Sequence record: NC_052983.1
Origin: Escherichia phage E21
Strand: one strand, 5' to 3'
DNA: 58,536 nucleotides
Made by a program: the position numbers and the translations under genes. The notes below the pieces were generated by a model that was not told the DNA's origin, did not search any database, and worked only from the letters and a program-made list of their open reading frames with translations. This document shows positions 5,586-54,470 of the stretch, one piece after another; the stretch's first letter is position 1; the number at the start of each line of letters is the position of its first letter.

Positions 5586-5832
5586 CGTTTAAATTATCCA
5601 CCCAATATACTAAAGCCCCGTAGCGCTTCATCTCGGCCATGCGTAATTCTTGTTGCTTCGACGGCTTCTCTCCGGGGCGTTTGATTTCGATAAAAACTAC
5701 AAAACTGTTTTTAATGAATATCCGGTCTGGTACGCCTCGTTTACCGGGGCTAGTAAATTTAGAAACCCACCAGCCTCGGGCCAAAGCGTATTTTCGGATA
5801 TCCGATTCGACTTTGCTCTCTCTAACAGTCAT
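5545..5832 (-). CDS. VRR-NUC domain nuclease
   Basis: 95 aa; GVPDRIF...FIEIKRPGEKPSKQQ matches the VRR-NUC PD-(D/E)xK signature; overlaps helicase start by 41 nt. Confidence 0.7.
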   Translation of the reverse strand: MTVRESKVESDIRKYALARGWWVSKFTSPGKRGVPDRIFIKNSFVVFIEIKRPGEKPSKQQELRMAEMKRYGALVYWVDNLNDAKEILETYGWED

Positions 5833-10790: not shown

Positions 10791-11075
10791 ATGAAAGAGA
10801 GTAATTTCCCATCGTGGGCGAAGAACAATAAAACGGGTCGACTTAAATTCATGATCCGGCATTTAGCCAGTTTCGCTTCGGAGGAGGGCCACCTAGTTTT
10901 CCTGTGCCGAGACGCTAAACTGTCGGTTCGTGGTGTCTCACAAGCAATCGACCGAGGAGAATTCACCTTTCAAATGGCGGATAAACTCGTTAAGGCTGCA
11001 AGCGTTGCTGGAAACCCGGACGTCACAGTTATGAACCTATTAAAACCTATGGAATCATTTAAAGAGGACAAATAA
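10791..11075 (+). CDS. hypothetical protein
   Basis: 94 aa; RBS AAGGAG 9 nt upstream; stop overlaps primase start (TAATG). Confidence 0.5.
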   Translation: MKESNFPSWAKNNKTGRLKFMIRHLASFASEEGHLVFLCRDAKLSVRGVSQAIDRGEFTFQMADKLVKAASVAGNPDVTVMNLLKPMESFKEDK

Positions 11076-13750
11076 TGTCTAACGTTTTCAAATCTCGTGG
11101 CCCTGAACTTTTCGACAATGGATACGAAGTCGTACCTATTACTCGTATCGACGCAACTGACAGCAAAGGGAAATTATTGTCTGGCGCGGGTAAAGCCCCG
11201 GCGTTAAAAGGGTGGCAGAAAATAGAGATCACTTCTGACATCGTTAATGAATGGGCGACGGGTAGTCGCTCTCGCTGTGGTGTGGGTATTCGTACCCACC
11301 GTAACCCTGCTGTCGATATCGACTGTTTAGACGCCGAAGCGTCAGAACACATGACGGCTTTCGTTGAGTCGGAAGTGGGCTTTGCTCCTATCCGTGTTGG
11401 GCGTGAACCTAAAGCGCTACTCCTCTATTATACAGAACGTCCTTTCACAAAAGTAAAATCAACCATCTTCGTTGATGAAAACGGGAATGAAAACGCTGTC
11501 GAGATATTAGGAAGCGGGCAACAATTCGTTGCTTACGGTATCCACCCGGGAACTAAGAAACCGTATAAATGGGTTACTAAAGGCGAGTCGCCTGCGGAAA
11601 ACCAAGCGGATTTTGACCTTGAAGAAATCACACTAGAAGACGCGAGAAAAATTATTGCGGAATTCGACCGGTATGCGAAAGAGCGCGGTTGGAAACCTTT
11701 AAAAAGTAAAAGCGGTACGGTCATCAAGCCATCTTTGGGCTACTACTTAGATGCTCCGGAAGAACTATCAGACTGGTCGGACGAGTCGGACTTTGACGAT
11801 GATGAAGACGATTGGGTCACTACTGATGATATCACCGATAAATGGGACGGTACTTACGAAGAACTTTACGAAATCTTCGAAAATGATATCGAACCATCTT
11901 ACGATTACCACACTTGGATTCCTGTTCTGGCTGCACTTAAAGACGCCGAACGTGAGCCGGACGAGTTTAAAGAGATCGCGAGAATGTGGTCTGCTCGGGC
12001 CGAGGAGTCTTTCGATAACGATGCCTTTGAAGATAAATGGGAAAACGGTAATTTCAATCGTGTTGGTAAATACGCTAAGACATTACGAGGAGTAATTGCC
12101 GAAGCGGAAAAGATCCAAGGCGTTCGCGAAATTGAGGACGTAGTTATACCTTTATTCGAAAAAGCTACTGACTTGGCCGAGTGGACTTTAGCTGCCGACC
12201 GCCTACGTGAAACGTGGGCTTTCGGTTTAGAAAGAGAGACGGCCATAAACATTGCTTGCGAAAAGTATAAGAAAGTCACTAACGGGTTAAAACTTACGGA
12301 CGTTCAAAAGAAACGATATCTTAGTATCGATTACTCTCTCTTTGACGCTCCCGAATGGTTGGCTCCTTGGGTTTATTGTACTACGGATAACGAGTTTATT
12401 AACTTAGACAATAGAACCAGAATGAACCCTAAATCTTTCGCGAATGCCTATAACCGAGAAACTGTGAAGAAATTCGGGGTAGCTGCGGACGTTTTCGCCA
12501 CGGTTGAAAGACCCGTTCCTGTTATCCACGATACGATGTATTACCCGTTGATGCACGGTGAGATGCCTAAGAACAAATGGAAGCGGGTTCCGGGTATTAA
12601 TGACAAGCGTGTTTTCGAATACAACGGTTTGACGTTCTTAAATACCTTTGACCATCGTTCCATGCCTGAGACCGCAACAAAAATTTCGACCGCTGGATAT
12701 AAGGCGATCGGGGAGGTAAAACGATACTTCGAAATACAGTATCCAGATCCAGACGAACGAAGACATGCGATGGACTGGATCGCGTGGGTTATCAATAATC
12801 CTGTTAGAAAGATTAACTATATGCTTCTCGTTCTTGGTGGTCAGGGTTCCGGTAAAACCATCGTTAAGAAGTTTATGGAACACATGCTCGGCTCTGATAA
12901 CGTCTCTACGATTTCGAATAAGGTTATCCATGGTAATTTTACCGGGTGGCAGTCTGGTCACATGCTCAAAGTTATTGAGGAAATATCGGTGAGTGGTCAT
13001 CGCTACGACGTTATGAACTCATTGAAAGAGCCGATATCGAATGAAACGTTACAGATCGAAGCGAAGTACCGTGACCCACGCCAGTGTGTGAATACTTCGT
13101 CGTATATGGCATTTACCAATGATGTTGGTGCTTTGCCTCTTACATCAAGTGACCGTCGCTTCTTGTTAGTTCGTAGTGCGTTCCAGCACAAGCGTGAAGT
13201 CACTGAATACCTACGGAAAGACCCTAATTACTTTAAACGGTTTGAGAAAGCCTTTACTAAACACGCACCGGAGATCCGCAAATGGTTTAGCGAGTGGGAG
13301 TATTCCGAGGGCTTCAAACACGATGGTAACGCTCCTGAAACGGTGAGTATGGGAAGCATGTCTTTAGCGTCAGAAGACGATTTCACCTCCGTAGTAATGG
13401 GGGCCGTAGATGATTGTGAGAAAGAGTTAGAATTTACATCGGGGATCACAGACGAAGTAATTTTCATTCCATCGGCAGTAGATTTAGTCCGAGATAGGTC
13501 TAAGGTTCCTAACGGGAAAATAATATATCGCATACTCGCTGAATATGGTTTCTTCCGGCCTGTGGATTCTCGTACACAAATAAGATTTAATGACGTAAGA
13601 GGACAAGTTGTTGTCGCGAATAGACATAAATGGCTCTATCCTGATGGGAGTGTCAACGTAGATAAGATTAAAGAGCATTTAGAGGAGAACGAACGCCGGG
13701 TAGAAGAACAAGAAAGCAAGAGAGAGTTAGAAGAAACTGACGTTTTCTAA
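11075..13750 (+). CDS. DNA primase-helicase (prim-pol-like N-terminus, P-loop D5/SF3-type C-terminus)
   Basis: 891 aa; Walker A LGGQGSGKT and Walker B-like region in C-terminal half; acidic linker; typical phage primase/helicase layout. Confidence 0.8.
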   Translation: MSNVFKSRGPELFDNGYEVVPITRIDATDSKGKLLSGAGKAPALKGWQKIEITSDIVNEWATGSRSRCGVGIRTHRNPAVDIDCLDAEASEHMTAFVESEVGFAPIRVGREPKALLLYYTERPFTKVKSTIFVDENGNENAVEILGSGQQFVAYGIHPGTKKPYKWVTKGESPAENQADFDLEEITLEDARKIIAEFDRYAKERGWKPLKSKSGTVIKPSLGYYLDAPEELSDWSDESDFDDDEDDWVTTDDITDKWDGTYEELYEIFENDIEPSYDYHTWIPVLAALKDAEREPDEFKEIARMWSARAEESFDNDAFEDKWENGNFNRVGKYAKTLRGVIAEAEKIQGVREIEDVVIPLFEKATDLAEWTLAADRLRETWAFGLERETAINIACEKYKKVTNGLKLTDVQKKRYLSIDYSLFDAPEWLAPWVYCTTDNEFINLDNRTRMNPKSFANAYNRETVKKFGVAADVFATVERPVPVIHDTMYYPLMHGEMPKNKWKRVPGINDKRVFEYNGLTFLNTFDHRSMPETATKISTAGYKAIGEVKRYFEIQYPDPDERRHAMDWIAWVINNPVRKINYMLLVLGGQGSGKTIVKKFMEHMLGSDNVSTISNKVIHGNFTGWQSGHMLKVIEEISVSGHRYDVMNSLKEPISNETLQIEAKYRDPRQCVNTSSYMAFTNDVGALPLTSSDRRFLLVRSAFQHKREVTEYLRKDPNYFKRFEKAFTKHAPEIRKWFSEWEYSEGFKHDGNAPETVSMGSMSLASEDDFTSVVMGAVDDCEKELEFTSGITDEVIFIPSAVDLVRDRSKVPNGKIIYRILAEYGFFRPVDSRTQIRFNDVRGQVVVANRHKWLYPDGSVNVDKIKEHLEENERRVEEQESKRELEETDVF

Positions 13751-13773
13751 AATATCGCGATTTTCGGTTTAAA

Positions 13774-13800
13774 GAGGTCACATTACGTGGCCTTTTTTAT
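13774..13800 (+). terminator. rho-independent terminator after primase-helicase
   Basis: AGGUCAC-AUUAC-GUGGCCU (7-bp stem, one G.U) followed by UUUUUUAUU. Confidence 0.7.
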
Positions 13801-13806
13801 TGCCCG

Positions 13807-13828
13807 AAAAACGACGCTCCCGATCGGG
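13807..13828. repeat. 21-bp box AAAAACGACG(C/T)TCCCGATCGG, copy 1 (contains perfect palindrome CCCGATCGGG)
   Basis: Repeated with one mismatch at 14787..14807; flanks the ORF-free region. Confidence 0.7.
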
Positions 13829-13854
13829 AATGCACGTTTGGTCAAAAAATGAGC

Positions 13855-13871
13855 GTACAAAATTTATACAG
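13855..13871. repeat. near-palindromic box GTACAAAATTTATACAG, copy 1
   Basis: Second copy TGTACAAATTTTATACAG at 13974..13991; half-site GTTGTACAAAAA at 14080. Confidence 0.6.
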
Positions 13872-13973
13872 AAAAACGTTCAATATTTAACCGATTTTCG
13901 GGTGATCGGATTTTTTGAGTGAATTTCCAATTTTTCATTTTTCCATTTTTTGGTCGAAAAACACCGAAAATGC

Positions 13974-13991
13974 TGTACAAATTTTATACAG
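13974..13991. repeat. near-palindromic box TGTACAAATTTTATACAG, copy 2
   Basis: Direct repeat of 13855..13871, about 120 bp apart. Confidence 0.6.
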
Positions 13992-14786
13992 GGTTTTTTG
14001 ACACAAAGTGTGTCGGTCATGTGTTCCGACGTGTGCGTGCCAGTTAACGTGTTGATTTTATTGAAAACGCATTTTTTATGTTGTACAAAAATCACCCAAC
14101 ACACATGATCGAATTACCTTTATATAGCTTATATATATATTTTTCTATTTTTCCTTTCCTATCTATTTTTTCTTTCTTCTGGAATTTCTATTTTATTATC
14201 TATTACTGTGTTTGCTGTGTCAGAAAGAAAGTAATATAGTAAAAACAATAACTTACCTTGGAACACCTATTGGAACATCAGCCGGCACAGCAATTTCCTG
14301 TGACACACCACCAGCCATGGTAATACCTAAAACGGCGCATAACTATTTGATATTATTACGGAATTACCTAAAATACCGGTCATTACGGTAAACCCGCCCT
14401 CCCGATCTACTAGCTACGCTAGACCCGAATTAATCTAATTAAATCAACGATTTGCGACGAGGGGCTATGGCAGATCCCGGACAAATTTCTGGAAGACGGC
14501 TCTGCGCACCCCCGCCCAACCGGACAACTCGTCCAAGTACCTTTTTCGATTTAAAAGTGATTCTTCTCTAGAAAGCACGGAGAGCGACGCACAGGCTTTA
14601 GCAATAGGGGACATCATCTAACACCGCGATCGCCTCGCACAATCGCACACGCTTACAATTTGAAGCACATCTAACCCACAACACCGCCCACCCGAACACC
14701 CAAACATCGAAACATCACGAAAAGCGGTTATATTTGTAAAAACGTCATGCGGTACAACCGCACACCCGAACACCCGCACAAAACGT

Positions 14787-14807
14787 AAAAACGACGTTCC
14801 CGATCGG
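14787..14807. repeat. 21-bp box AAAAACGACGTTCCCGATCGG, copy 2
   Basis: Direct repeat of 13807..13828. Confidence 0.7.
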
Positions 14808-15012
14808 CGTGTTCACCCGAGGCGCTATACCCCCGCTCAACGGATACGACCGACAAACTTAAAACCCCCTTTAAGTCGGAACAAACAAAGCGCCGTCTTC
14901 CGCCCTCAATCGAACCACACGGGCATAACTCATCGTAGGTAATACATCGGCCTTACCTAGCGGGCAAAACACGCTGAGGACGCAACACATGGCTTTACGG
15001 CAATTTTCCATA

Positions 15013-15067
15013 GGGTGGGGGGGAATGGGGGAGAGTGAGGGCTTGGGGTGGTGGTGTTGGGTGGGTA
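15013..15067 (+). other. G-run tract with G-quadruplex potential (C-rich on the transcribed minus strand)
   Basis: GGGTGGGGGGG..GGGGG..GGG..GGGG..GGTGG..GGGTGGG within 55 nt, directly 3' of the minus-strand small membrane protein gene. Confidence 0.5.
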
Positions 15068-15160
15068 GGCGCTGGCGCGACCGCATGGACAGACTGACGG
15101 CTAAGAACGAGAAAAGCCCCGCACGAATGCGAGGCCTTGGGGGTGGACTGTGTGGGACGG

Positions 15161-15400
15161 CTACCGGATTGTTAGGGCGACGCCTCCGGCGAACACCAAG
15201 ATCGCAACGCAAACCATGAAGACGACCATCATGATAGCGCCGATTGATTCGAGAACTAACGTAGTGCGGTGTAGACCGTCGAAACCGTGGTTTTGTAGGG
15301 CGCGGAAAAAGAACGAGAGAATATAAATCGAAATTAGGCCGAAGAAACACACGGCGCCCACGTTGTACACACCGGAGAGTAGCATCTTGAGAATGCTCAT
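15161..15400 (-). CDS. small membrane protein (2-3 predicted TM helices)
   Basis: Hydrophobic segments VGAVCFFGLISIYILSFFF and IGAIMMVVFMVCVAILVFAGGVAL; start set at internal ATG 15400 (ATGA overlap with upstream gene). Confidence 0.45.
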   Translation of the reverse strand: MSILKMLLSGVYNVGAVCFFGLISIYILSFFFRALQNHGFDGLHRTTLVLESIGAIMMVVFMVCVAILVFAGGVALTIR

Positions 15401-31391: not shown

Positions 31392-31410
31392 AAGGGGCGT
31401 AATGCCCCTT
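31392..31410. terminator. bidirectional rho-independent terminator at the convergent junction of the plus early operon and the minus lysis/structural operon
   Basis: AAGGGGC-GUAAU-GCCCCUU perfect 7-bp stem; U-rich on both sides. Confidence 0.7.
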
Positions 31411-31420
31411 TACTTTATTA

Positions 31421-31660
31421 TCAAAACCGGCAAGACCGCTCACCGTCTTCACCACCCCAACCGCACAACCTTTGTCCTAGGCAGTTATGAAATAAAACTT
31501 GGTCGGCCGTTTTAGTAGAAAAGATATCATCTTCACCAATGTAAATCGGTCTGGCTGTTTGGCAAAACGACGGGTTATTTACGGTCTTTACGCAACCAAC
31601 CACTGCGAAGACGATCAGAACTACCGCCGTCCGGTAAGCTATTAATCCCCGAATCGACAT
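31421..31660 (-). CDS. o-spanin-like lipoprotein (Rz1-like)
   Basis: 79 aa; signal sequence with lipobox-like VVGC; Cys/Pro-rich; overlaps the 3' end of the i-spanin candidate in another frame. Confidence 0.5.
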   Translation of the reverse strand: MSIRGLIAYRTAVVLIVFAVVGCVKTVNNPSFCQTARPIYIGEDDIFSTKTADQVLFHNCLGQRLCGWGGEDGERSCRF

Positions 31661-31832
31661 CTTGTTTTACCTCATTAACTCGTTCTTGTTCAATATGGTT
31701 ATCGATAATATCTTCGATAACTTTCTCGTTCTTTCCGTCCTGTTTTCCTTTACGCCACGTTAGGAATAGGAGGACAAAAAAGGCGACGACCCCTAGAGCC
31801 ATCGCCTTGATTTTAGCCCAAAAGGACATCAC
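31575..31832 (-). CDS. i-spanin-like protein (Rz-like)
   Basis: 85 aa; N-terminal TM helix followed by a charged segment. Confidence 0.5.
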   Translation of the reverse strand: MMSFWAKIKAMALGVVAFFVLLFLTWRKGKQDGKNEKVIEDIIDNHIEQERVNEVKQDVDSGINSLPDGGSSDRLRSGWLRKDRK

Positions 31833-32533
31833 TGCCCCAATTTGAATTTACGGTAGCGGACATAGCCGAGGTAAATCCCGATCCCGACGGTGGCGACGCC
31901 GAGGAAGATTCTAGCGTAGTCGCCAGATGAAAGGTCTCCCGAGGCATTGTGTACCGCCTCCTTGACCGGCTGGACGACCTCAACCAACTGAGCGACGCCT
32001 AGTGCTGCGGTGCCGGCTGCTACGGTTGCAGTAGAATTAACGACTTTCGGTTTCTTAGTCACCCCGGCCATACGGAGGGCTTCTTCGATAGTCTCGTCAG
32101 AATACCAAGTGTTTACCGTTTTGCCTTTGAGTGGCCCATTGAAGCCGTTTTCTGTACCGATGATGCCTGACACCAATAAAAACAACTGGTCGTAGTCGTG
32201 CATATCGATAACTTCGTCGTCCGGGCCAACGCCTAGTAGGTCTGCTAAGTTTTTAGCGTATACGTTGGTATTATTCCCTTTCTCCGACCCCGGCGCCCAA
32301 CGCTCAACGATTTCACGCGCGGAGTCGATGCGAGAGCCGTTCTTTGATTTGCGCTTATCGTAATACGTGATTAACGTTACTGCGATCGCACGAATACCAT
32401 AAACCGGATTTACGAATTCACAAAAGCGAGGAGACGTTCTCTCCGCTTTCGGTACTAGCCCCTGCCAAGGAGATCCCCACTCCAAGTTACCCGGGTTATT
32501 TTGTCTGATACCTTTAGGCTTTAAATTCGCCAT
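31829..32533 (-). CDS. putative endolysin / cell-wall hydrolase with C-terminal hydrophobic anchor (family unresolved)
   Basis: Sits between holin-like and spanin genes; start set at ATG 32533 (MANLKPKGIRQNNPGNLEW) with RBS AGGGG; C-terminal hydrophobic stretch FLGVATVGIGIYLGYV. Confidence 0.4.
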   Translation of the reverse strand: MANLKPKGIRQNNPGNLEWGSPWQGLVPKAERTSPRFCEFVNPVYGIRAIAVTLITYYDKRKSKNGSRIDSAREIVERWAPGSEKGNNTNVYAKNLADLLGVGPDDEVIDMHDYDQLFLLVSGIIGTENGFNGPLKGKTVNTWYSDETIEEALRMAGVTKKPKVVNSTATVAAGTAALGVAQLVEVVQPVKEAVHNASGDLSSGDYARIFLGVATVGIGIYLGYVRYRKFKLGQ

Positions 32534-32543
32534 GGTGTTGCCC

Positions 32544-32888
32544 CTATTTTTTATCTGCGAGTTTTTGAACGCTAGTTTTAATGTCTCTAAGGTCTTCGCG
32601 AACTTCACCTCGAAACTGGTTTATTTGTTGTGCGGTATTATGTTTTATATCGGCGATTTCCCGCTCGGCTTGCGTTGTTCGTTGTTCTAGGACTCTAACG
32701 TCAGCCGTGACCAACAAAACATCGTTTCTAACATTGCTAAACTGGTTATTAACCCACATTATACCGCTACACAACGCTGCTATTAGCGAAAGGATAGTCG
32801 GGATATTGATCGCCAAGTCAATGCGAACGCCTCCCGTACCTCCATCTCTACCCGCCATATTGCCCCCGTTATCGGTTCTTATATCCAT
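32544..32888 (-). CDS. holin-like membrane protein (1 TM plus coiled-coil)
   Basis: 114 aa; TM INIPTILSLIAALCSGIMWV; first gene of the lysis cassette. Confidence 0.35.
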   Translation of the reverse strand: MDIRTDNGGNMAGRDGGTGGVRIDLAINIPTILSLIAALCSGIMWVNNQFSNVRNDVLLVTADVRVLEQRTTQAEREIADIKHNTAQQINQFRGEVREDLRDIKTSVQKLADKK

Positions 32889-53863: not shown

Positions 53864-54470
53864 TGCTTAATCTCTCAAACTGCCGGAAGAACTCGCCTTC
53901 AACTAACTTCGCGATCTGAGGTGACACTTTTCCGGCCGTAGTTTCCATAACCTGATTTACCGATGGGGCGTAAAGGAGGGCCACTCGCCCGGGAACAAGC
54001 CACGCTTTGTGGGCGCTTGCTTTGTTGTTAAGTTTCTCCCCGGGAGAGAGACGAACTGCTAGTCCGGTGTTGTAATTGTCTTCTGACATACTCGCACCTG
54101 CTTTCAGTTTAACAAGAAACGCTTTCTTAAGAAAGGTTGTTCTCCCCCGACGAACTTTAACTGTTACCCCGGACTTACCCATCGTTCCGGAGGTGGCAAA
54201 ACGCGCTAGGCTGGTGGCCCTTTTCCTCGCGAGTATTGTCGCTTCTAGTTTATTGTCTGAGGCGTATCGAGCCACTTTCAGTCTGTCACCTTTTAGGTAT
54301 CCCCTAGGGAAACTTATCTCGGCCAACATTCCGTCCCGTAGCGCTTTCATGCCTGACCGGCGGACTACCGTATTTATCGCTAAACGCATAGACCGCGCCG
54401 TCATCTTCGGCATACCGTCGAAATACAGTTTTAACGCATTAACGCCCACCGTCTCCACCGATATCGCCAT
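53853..54470 (-). CDS. tail completion protein (gpZ / HK97 gp10-like position)
   Basis: 205 aa, basic. Confidence 0.45.
   Translation of the reverse strand: MAISVETVGVNALKLYFDGMPKMTARSMRLAINTVVRRSGMKALRDGMLAEISFPRGYLKGDRLKVARYASDNKLEATILARKRATSLARFATSGTMGKSGVTVKVRRGRTTFLKKAFLVKLKAGASMSEDNYNTGLAVRLSPGEKLNNKASAHKAWLVPGRVALLYAPSVNQVMETTAGKVSPQIAKLVEGEFFRQFERLSNGK

Follow-up and report, generated by a model that had tools for sequence, protein, structure and literature searches.

The window, by which we mean the whole stretch of 58,536 bases that was analysed, was identified by BLAST against GenBank phages as the complete genome of a chi-like Proteus siphovirus of the genus Lavrentievavirus (Casjensviridae). 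The closest match was Proteus phage P-07, with 95 % identity across the region described here. The record is a circular permutation in which cos lies internally. As listed in Table 1, a G-run tract is found in this genome between the cohesive-end site and the right-arm operon, an array of small genes on the minus strand. The tract is contained in a gene-free cos region of 1.4 kb (13751-15160), which separates two convergent transcription units, the primase/helicase gene on one side and the right-arm operon on the other. The stop codon of the last gene of the operon lies at 15161-15163, and this gene is annotated as a 240-nt CDS in P-07, DoubleBarrel, PLY284, P2-71, NotEvenPhaged, and P16-2532. 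Records filed under the names Pseudomonas phage E21, Staphylococcus phage SVV09-A, Enterococcus phage AS-M1_NWU, and Salmonella phages SD-11 to SD-14 share 92-94 % identity with Proteus Lavrentievavirus genomes in this region, and the hosts given for them look doubtful.

Table 1. Features at the locus, in window coordinates
Feature	Coordinates	Strand	Basis or remark
Primase/helicase gene	11075-13750	+	Faces the minus-strand operon across cos
cosN, 12-base cohesive end GCTCTGCGCACC	14499..14510	.	Sequence, published overhang, ends of related records
cos-proximal arm, A+C-rich and G-poor, with conserved blocks and repeats	14511..15004	+	Composition, repeats, Kokobel1 landmarks
CACCCGAACACCC repeats	14683-14780	+	Repeat search
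Block TTCCATAGGGTG with TAGG core, cos-side flank of the tract	15005..15016	.	Cross-genus match
G-run tract	15013..15067	+	Composition, G4Hunter, rut-like scan, 15-genome alignment
20-bp block GCGCTGGCGCGACCGCATGG, terminator-side flank of the tract	15069..15088	.	Cross-genus match
Intrinsic terminator of the last minus-strand operon	15100..15138	-	Terminator scan, fold, conservation
Last gene of the right-arm operon, 79-aa small hydrophobic protein	15161..15400	-	ORF list

The cohesive-end sequence is the reverse complement of the published overhang 5'-GGTGCGCAGAGC, which was determined as the 12-base cohesive end of phage chi (PMC4342425) and was also reported for five Proteus chi-like phages (PMC9022528). 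Many GenBank records of related phages have one of their ends at window positions ~14499-14520. The start of the tract is 504 bp from the end of the overhang (14510 to 15013), a setting that had escaped the sequence-only reading, in which the cos region and the cohesive-end nick were missed.

Several further elements were observed in the cos region. At the cos core (14440-14580), ~50-60 bp on each side are conserved from Proteus phages to Salmonella phage chi, with GGGGCTATGGCAGATCC.. on one side and ..AGTACCTTTTT.. on the other, and the nick is flanked by two copies of CCGGACAA in the same orientation (14477-14484 and 14520-14527). The repeats in the arm consist of two pairs of C-rich direct repeats of the CACCCGAACACCC type, with an 8-nt offset and 74 bp apart; related CACCCGGACA motifs recur in Kokobel1 and in a Yonseivirus-like contig, and the repeats could be sites for the terminase small subunit. 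A hairpin, CTTAAA-ACCCCC-TTTAAG, lies at 14857-14876 and is found in Kokobel1 too, and a perfect 7-bp inverted repeat, TAGGTAA-N10-TTACCTA, lies at 14936-14959 and is partly kept in Kokobel1. On the other side of the nick, the segment 13800-14250 beside the primase/helicase gene resembles an origin or operator region. It contains a near-palindromic 17-mer, GTACAAAATTTATACAG, at 13855 and 13975, a related TTGTACAAAAAT at 14081, and a very A+T-rich, G-poor stretch at ~14120-14240. In phage chi, GTTACA/TGTAAC repeats are numerous at the equivalent position, next to an HTH gene (gp1) that is apparently absent from the Proteus phages. The primase gene has its own plus-strand intrinsic terminator at 13775-13798 (AGGTCAC-ATTAC-GTGGCCT followed by T5-6), which was not listed by the consensus scan and which mirrors the minus-strand terminator across the cos region. 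In several GenBank records short ORFs are annotated across the cos region, and these are implausible given the indels of the relatives.

The plus strand of the tract reads GGGTGGGGGGGAATGGGGGAGAGTGAGGGCTTGGGGTGGTGGTGTTGGGTGGGTA; G accounts for 36 of its bases, T for 12, A for 6, and C for a single one. Seven G-runs were counted in it (3, 7, 5, 3, 4, 3, and 3 nt), in agreement with the initial description of at least six runs of 3-7 nt within 55 nt. G4 prediction scores, which had been proposed as a check, were likewise in line with that description: the tract had the top G4Hunter values in the window, 2.02 with a span of 55 nt and 2.40 with one of 25 nt, and the runner-up 55-nt peak had an absolute score of 1.27. 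When the window was shuffled 200 times at the mononucleotide level, the maximum number of G or C per 55 nt averaged 26.7 and never exceeded 30, compared with the 36 observed. The G-rich tract is real and far beyond chance. Six overlapping canonical G4 motifs, defined as four runs of G3+ separated by N1-7, were found at 15013-15049, and elsewhere in the window such motifs occur at just two positions, 39814 and 40339, both coding. The tract has the marks by which a G4-forming sequence is recognised, namely at least four G3+ runs, loops of 1-7 nt, and a G4Hunter score above ~1.5. Folding with ViennaRNA including G-quadruplex terms, which is indicative only, placed a three-tetrad G4 at 15013-15030 with an energy far below that of any Watson-Crick fold, and the plus strand of the tract was free of Watson-Crick structure in the folding.

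A coding function of the tract was rejected. The poly-G run varies from 5 to 11 among the relatives, and this and other indels are not divisible by 3. Since such poly-G indels separate close relatives, the tract is non-coding on either strand, and the ORFs 14989..15219 (+) and 14871..15350 (-) span it by chance only. The search of the whole window against Rfam gave nothing at the gathering thresholds, and a permissive search of 13700-15250 gave a chance snoRNA match (E = 0.93) as its sole match; no tRNA or tmRNA was found. Pairing of the tract as an inverted repeat with the C-rich repeats at 14683-14780, either as paired binding sites or as a long-range stem, was dismissed as compositional and not significant, since the local alignment scored 22 and shuffled sequences averaged 19.4 (sd 2.8, max 30). 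Inspection of the sequence upstream of the tract showed no convincing sigma-70 promoter, a promoter scan gave 3 weak matches in 2.1 kb versus 2.8 expected, and a G-rich plus-strand RNA driven by such a promoter, acting in an R-loop or in origin priming, was left as speculation.

The G-rich plus strand is the template for minus-strand transcription, and the RNA product is C-rich and G-poor. Rut-like windows were sought with a re-implementation of RhoTermPredict (PMC6407284), in which at least 70-80 nt of RNA with more C than G and with regularly spaced C is required. The minus-strand RNA 15071..14994 (78 nt) contained 41 C and 6 G, that is, a C/G of 6.8, with the C regularly spaced, and no other rut-like window on either strand of the genome ranked higher. 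The extended C-rich, G-poor, rut-like composition that had been proposed for this transcript was thus borne out. Between 9 and 15 % of all 78-nt windows in the genome pass these permissive criteria; it is the rank, and not the pass itself, that is informative. The excess of C over G in 60 nt was 0.617, compared with a 99.9th percentile of 0.317, and 38 YC dinucleotides were counted in the first 100 nt past the terminator hairpin. Except for that hairpin, the RNA was predicted to be unstructured (fold, z = +1.06), and it is untranslated, being located downstream of the stop at 15161 and broken by frame-disrupting indels among the relatives. In the 150 nt downstream of the tract, the candidate pause sites were one GGN8YG at 14905 and an A+T-rich hairpin at ~14876, and no G+C-rich pause hairpin was found there.

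The second-best rut-like window (14641-14718, +) lies in the same cos arm in the opposite direction. The third-best (31402-31479, +; C/G 3.9) comes right after the terminator of a plus-strand operon. The segment 31392-31480 is a convergent junction between that operon and the lysis genes, with a symmetric hairpin terminator at 31392-31410. The C-rich stretch overlaps the 3' end of a possible o-spanin ORF (31421..31660), which is nested with an i-spanin-like ORF (31575..31832); both are downstream of a 259-aa ORF (31829..32608, -) that is probably an endolysin, judging from the translation alone. The terminator and C-rich stretch at 31392-31479 were not accepted as an independent second example because of the overlap with the plausible o-spanin ORF.

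The right-arm operon ends in a bona fide intrinsic terminator. Its hairpin, AAGGCCUCGCA-UUCG-UGCGGGGCUU at 15138..15113, has an 11-bp stem, a UUCG loop, and an energy of -16.4 kcal/mol, is the sole structure in the centroid of the fold, and is invariant across 15 Lavrentievavirus genomes (pi = 0). In the tail that follows, UUUUCUCGUUCUU, the U tract is just 4 long before the first C, and the C-rich RNA starts 46 nt past the hairpin. The tract had been described as lying directly after the stop of the small membrane protein gene, a statement that must be corrected: it starts 93 nt past the stop, with the terminator hairpin in between. Given the conserved hairpin between the stop and the tract, Rho at the tract could act on read-through transcripts only. 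In pPM_01 and P2-71, a 39-bp insertion (GCGTGACGGTTGCGTGAGAGAACGGCGA.GCCATAGAACG) is present at window position 15109, between the tract and the terminator; it partly duplicates the adjoining ..GACGGCTAAGAACG.. and stretches the distance from the block to the terminator. The interval enlarged in these two phages is the same one that varies between genera.

The conservation of the tract was assessed in an alignment of 15 Lavrentievavirus genomes. The tract is present in all of them (15/15), with at least five G-runs and a G4Hunter score of at least 1.36 in each. The number of C in the ~60 nt around the tract is 2-3, or 6 in NotEvenPhaged, where the extracted segment runs past the tract. The poly-G run is missing in one record, the G5 run of the window is GTGAG or GTGGG in most relatives, and a short-loop G4 motif is kept in 7 of the 15 genomes. 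Nucleotide diversity was 0.054 in the tract compared with 0.044-0.085 in the adjoining non-coding DNA. Judged from this alignment, the tract is not especially constrained within the genus.

The comparison was extended to other genera. IMG/VR and metagenome scans with a 14-mer and a 16-mer from cos gave almost exclusively chance matches or contigs ending at cos, with Kokobel1 and one Yonseivirus-like contig being usable, and a search for related loci with the neighbouring 192-aa protein gave two distant, uninformative loci. The cohesive end is common to the window, to the Providencia phage Kokobel1 (Kokobelvirus), and to the Proteus phage Saba (Cenphatecvirus). Seven landmarks were placed at 38/38, 130/130, 361/364, 440/442, 457/459, 513/515, and 571/572 bp from the nick (window/Kokobel1), and much of the sequence between them could not be aligned by BLAST. 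Of these landmarks, AGTACCTTTT is the one at 38 bp and keeps that distance in Saba, GATCGCCTCGC at 130 bp is absent from Saba, the TAGG core at 513/515 bp is found at 515 bp in Saba, and GCGCTGGCGCGACCGCATGG at 571/572 bp is found at 572 bp in Saba. The match to GCGCTGGCGCGACCGCATGG is 20/20 in the window, 15/20 in Kokobel1, and 20/20 in Saba. A fixed position relative to the nick was thus found in three genera for the landmarks flanking the tract.

The spacer between the TAGG core and GCGCTGGCGCGACCGCATGG is where the tract lies. It is 54, 53, and 53 nt long in the window, Kokobel1, and Saba, respectively, has a G+T content of 87, 81, and 81 %, and contains 1, 4, and 8 C and 35, 26, and 17 G. 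The distance from the block to the terminator is 23, 96, and 188 nt in the same order, and the DNA of this interval is likewise C-poor. There is no G-run of three or more in the Saba spacer, and the Kokobel1 spacer has a single motif with loops of 9-10 nt; the conservation of G-runs at the orthologous position that is expected of a functional G4 was not seen beyond the genus. The RNA of the Saba spacer is just 32 % C, and the 188 nt between the block and the terminator are also G-poor in that phage. What is conserved across the three genera is the position, the length, and a C-poor, G+T-rich plus strand, and not the G4 potential.

Phage chi, ECO111 (Chivirus-type), SAKp02 (Yonseivirus), and the Yersinia phage Rostov 43 have the same overhang and no such tract, and their terminators are located 459-530 bp from the nick. 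The terminators differ as well. In Lavrentievavirus, Kokobelvirus, and Cenphatecvirus, which are phages of Morganellaceae, the U tracts are short and interrupted (U4, U4, and U3), and the 100 nt of RNA that follow the terminator have a C/G of 3.4-4.1. ECO111, SAKp02, and Rostov 43, the three phages scored for comparison, have U6 terminators followed by a C/G of 0.5-1.2 in the next 100 nt. The chi terminator has U7, and the best rut-like window of chi reaches just 1.47. Lineages with a weak U tract thus have C-rich RNA downstream and lineages with U6-7 do not, a pattern that amounts to about two clades rather than seven independent lineages.

We tentatively favour, with limited confidence, the reading that the tract is a rut-like Rho-loading backup behind a leaky terminator, which would shield cos and the convergent primase gene. 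From the composition, the unstructured and untranslated RNA, the position between terminator and cos, and the compositional conservation in three genera, we infer read-through, Rho binding, and ensuing termination. The C-rich unstructured RNA would be made only if polymerase reads past the conserved terminator with its weak U tract. Rho would load on this RNA 46-100 nt past the hairpin and would release the polymerase before it had moved more than a few hundred bases further. Transcription would in this way be kept off cosN, 504 bp further, and from an antisense run into the primase/helicase gene. The pattern of U tracts and C-rich RNA across lineages fits such an arrangement, in which the leaky intrinsic terminator and a Rho backup would share the work, and cooperation of leaky intrinsic terminators with downstream Rho is described experimentally for mycobacteria and E. 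coli in a preprint (bioRxiv 10.1101/2022.07.21.500918). The loss of the G-runs in Saba, while the C-poverty of the plus strand is kept in three genera, was also counted in favour of Rho loading, and so was the convergent geometry, in which the plus-strand primase gene faces the operon across cos.

The tract resembles rut sites behind leaky terminators in that its RNA is untranslated, unstructured, C-rich, and G-poor over ~80 nt with many YC dimers, and in that it lies just past the end of an operon at a convergent junction, with a short-U hairpin upstream. Classical phage examples of rut sites are rutA and rutB of lambda tR1. Compared with typical rut sites, the C/G of 6.8 is far higher and the Rho dependence is putative; moreover, 55 nt of nearly pure C/A/U are interrupted by a conserved G+C-rich 20-nt block, and the setting of the tract is a phage cos region, where its distance to the nick is fixed. 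Several observations speak against the Rho reading. The rut criteria are permissive, the link between U tracts and C-rich RNA comes from about two clades, the RNA of the Saba spacer is low in C, and a single consensus pause element with no G+C-rich pause hairpin was seen downstream. The hairpin is strong (-16.4 kcal/mol), and thus little RNA may reach the tract. Furthermore, a spacer length of 53-54 nt and a fixed position 513-572 bp from cosN are unpredicted by a rut model and point to a constraint at the DNA level.

The main rival takes up this last point. It holds that the tract is a fixed-length, strand-asymmetric spacer in a cos-proximal nucleoprotein architecture of the right arm, with a role in starting or ending packaging, in recognising the ends, or in replication, and that it sets the distance and phase of two putative protein-binding blocks, ..CCATAGGG.. 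and GCGCTGGCGCGACCGCATGG. We consider this possible, if on the unlikely side. The conserved length and position are explained by this model and not by the rut model: the landmark distances from the nick match in the window and Kokobel1 and are 38, 515, and 572 in Saba, the length stays at 54, 53, and 53 nt while the sequence shifts from G-rich to T-rich, the 20-bp flanking block is identical in Saba, and beyond that block the distance to the terminator varies freely (23, 96, and 188 nt). However, a pure spacer leaves unexplained why one strand is G+T-rich (81-87 %) and C-poor, the proteins binding the blocks are putative, and the element is missing altogether from chi-type relatives that share this cohesive end, in which the terminator lies 459 bp from the nick.

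The comparison with lambda is mixed in the same manner. As with the accessory elements of lambda cos (the R sites and IHF site of cosB, and cosQ), the tract is part of non-coding DNA flanking cosN, its flanks are conserved in sequence and in nick distance, and the arm contains repeats (CCGGACAA and CACCCGAACACCC). The lambda cosQ-cosN-cosB array, however, spans ~200 bp, and the tract, at 504 bp from cosN, is far more distant and well outside such a span; in addition, no repeated binding site can be recognised within it, and Chi-type relatives with an identical 12-base end do not have it. The spacer and the rut readings are compatible and not mutually exclusive.

That the tract has no selected function, being slippage-prone G-rich filler in a tolerant non-coding spacer that was kept by recent divergence, appears doubtful to us. 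Its diversity of 0.054 is no lower than that of its neighbours, the poly-G run varies in length and is missing in one record, and the sequence identity to other genera is low, all of which would be expected of filler. Against this, the tract is the compositional extreme of the whole genome, three genera agree in its length, position, and G+T richness despite turnover of the primary sequence, and lineages differ in compositional skew in step with the quality of their terminators.

The sequence-only reading had offered as an alternative that a plus-strand G4 impedes replication or transcription. The high in-silico score stood; the expected conservation did not. We regard it as improbable that a G4 acts here as such, whether as a roadblock to RNA polymerase or to the replication fork or as a structural signal near the genome end. 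The genome-maximal G4Hunter values, the canonical short-loop motifs, the indicative three-tetrad fold with no competing Watson-Crick structure, and the at least five G-runs in all 15 Lavrentievavirus genomes are in its favour. On the other hand, Saba and Kokobel1 do not keep the pattern of G-runs at the orthologous position, within the genus itself the G5 run is altered in most relatives and a short-loop motif is kept in fewer than half of the genomes, and duplex DNA needs to be opened first. A further reading, in which the tract and its two flanking blocks would form a DNA-structural part of an unusually large (~590-bp) cos recognition region of Morganellaceae chi-like phages, a G-rich or G4-prone segment at a fixed distance from the nick being read by the packaging or end-processing machinery as a phage counterpart of the G4-containing herpesvirus pac1, strikes us as quite remote. 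Tailed phages and herpesviruses are united in the realm Duplodnaviria, and the tract shares with pac1, which has conserved G4 motifs, a number of G3+ runs separated by short loops, a G4Hunter score that is very high, and a location near a terminase cleavage site. It differs from pac1 in lying 504 bp from the cleavage site rather than within tens of bp, in the loss of its G-run pattern in sister genera, in having no T-rich core between the G-runs, and in that its G4 is a predicted one. In the literature, links between G4 and packaging were found for herpesvirus pac1 only and none for phage cos regions.

A Chi-like cluster that modulates RecBCD and guards the nearby DNA end is scarcely credible: the ends of linear cos phage DNA are open to RecBCD and the tract contains GGTGGTGG, a 7/8 match to GCTGGTGG, but it has no exact Chi, GGTGGTGG lies on the plus strand, and RecBCD moving from 14511 toward higher coordinates would, by the established orientation rule, scan the minus strand, which reads CCACCACC here, so that the orientation is wrong. 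Three exact Chi octamers were found genome-wide, at 54210 (+) and, as the complement, at 5767 and 14308. The complement at 14308-14315, CCACCAGC, is 190 bp from the cos nick and, by the usual rule, is not oriented to act on RecBCD coming from the adjacent end.

For annotation, the cos region can be equated with the gene-free stretch of 1.4 kb, and ORFs that some GenBank records place there are probably spurious. Rut-like tracts behind terminators and G-rich potential quadruplex sequences (PQS) are both known kinds of element, of which this tract would be an unusually extreme member. With either the Rho or the spacer reading, the result would be incremental, a modest refinement in phages whose cos region and transcription are unstudied. 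To our knowledge, nothing of the Casjensviridae cos has been defined beyond the 12-base overhang, and a fixed-length spacer, if it is part of the cos architecture, would make cos recognition in this family larger and more complex than known so far. If the tract is indeed a Rho-loading site, it would provide a clean natural pairing, in a phage, of a leaky intrinsic terminator with an extreme rut-like tract, by which convergent transcription would be kept off the packaging site and the opposing replication gene.
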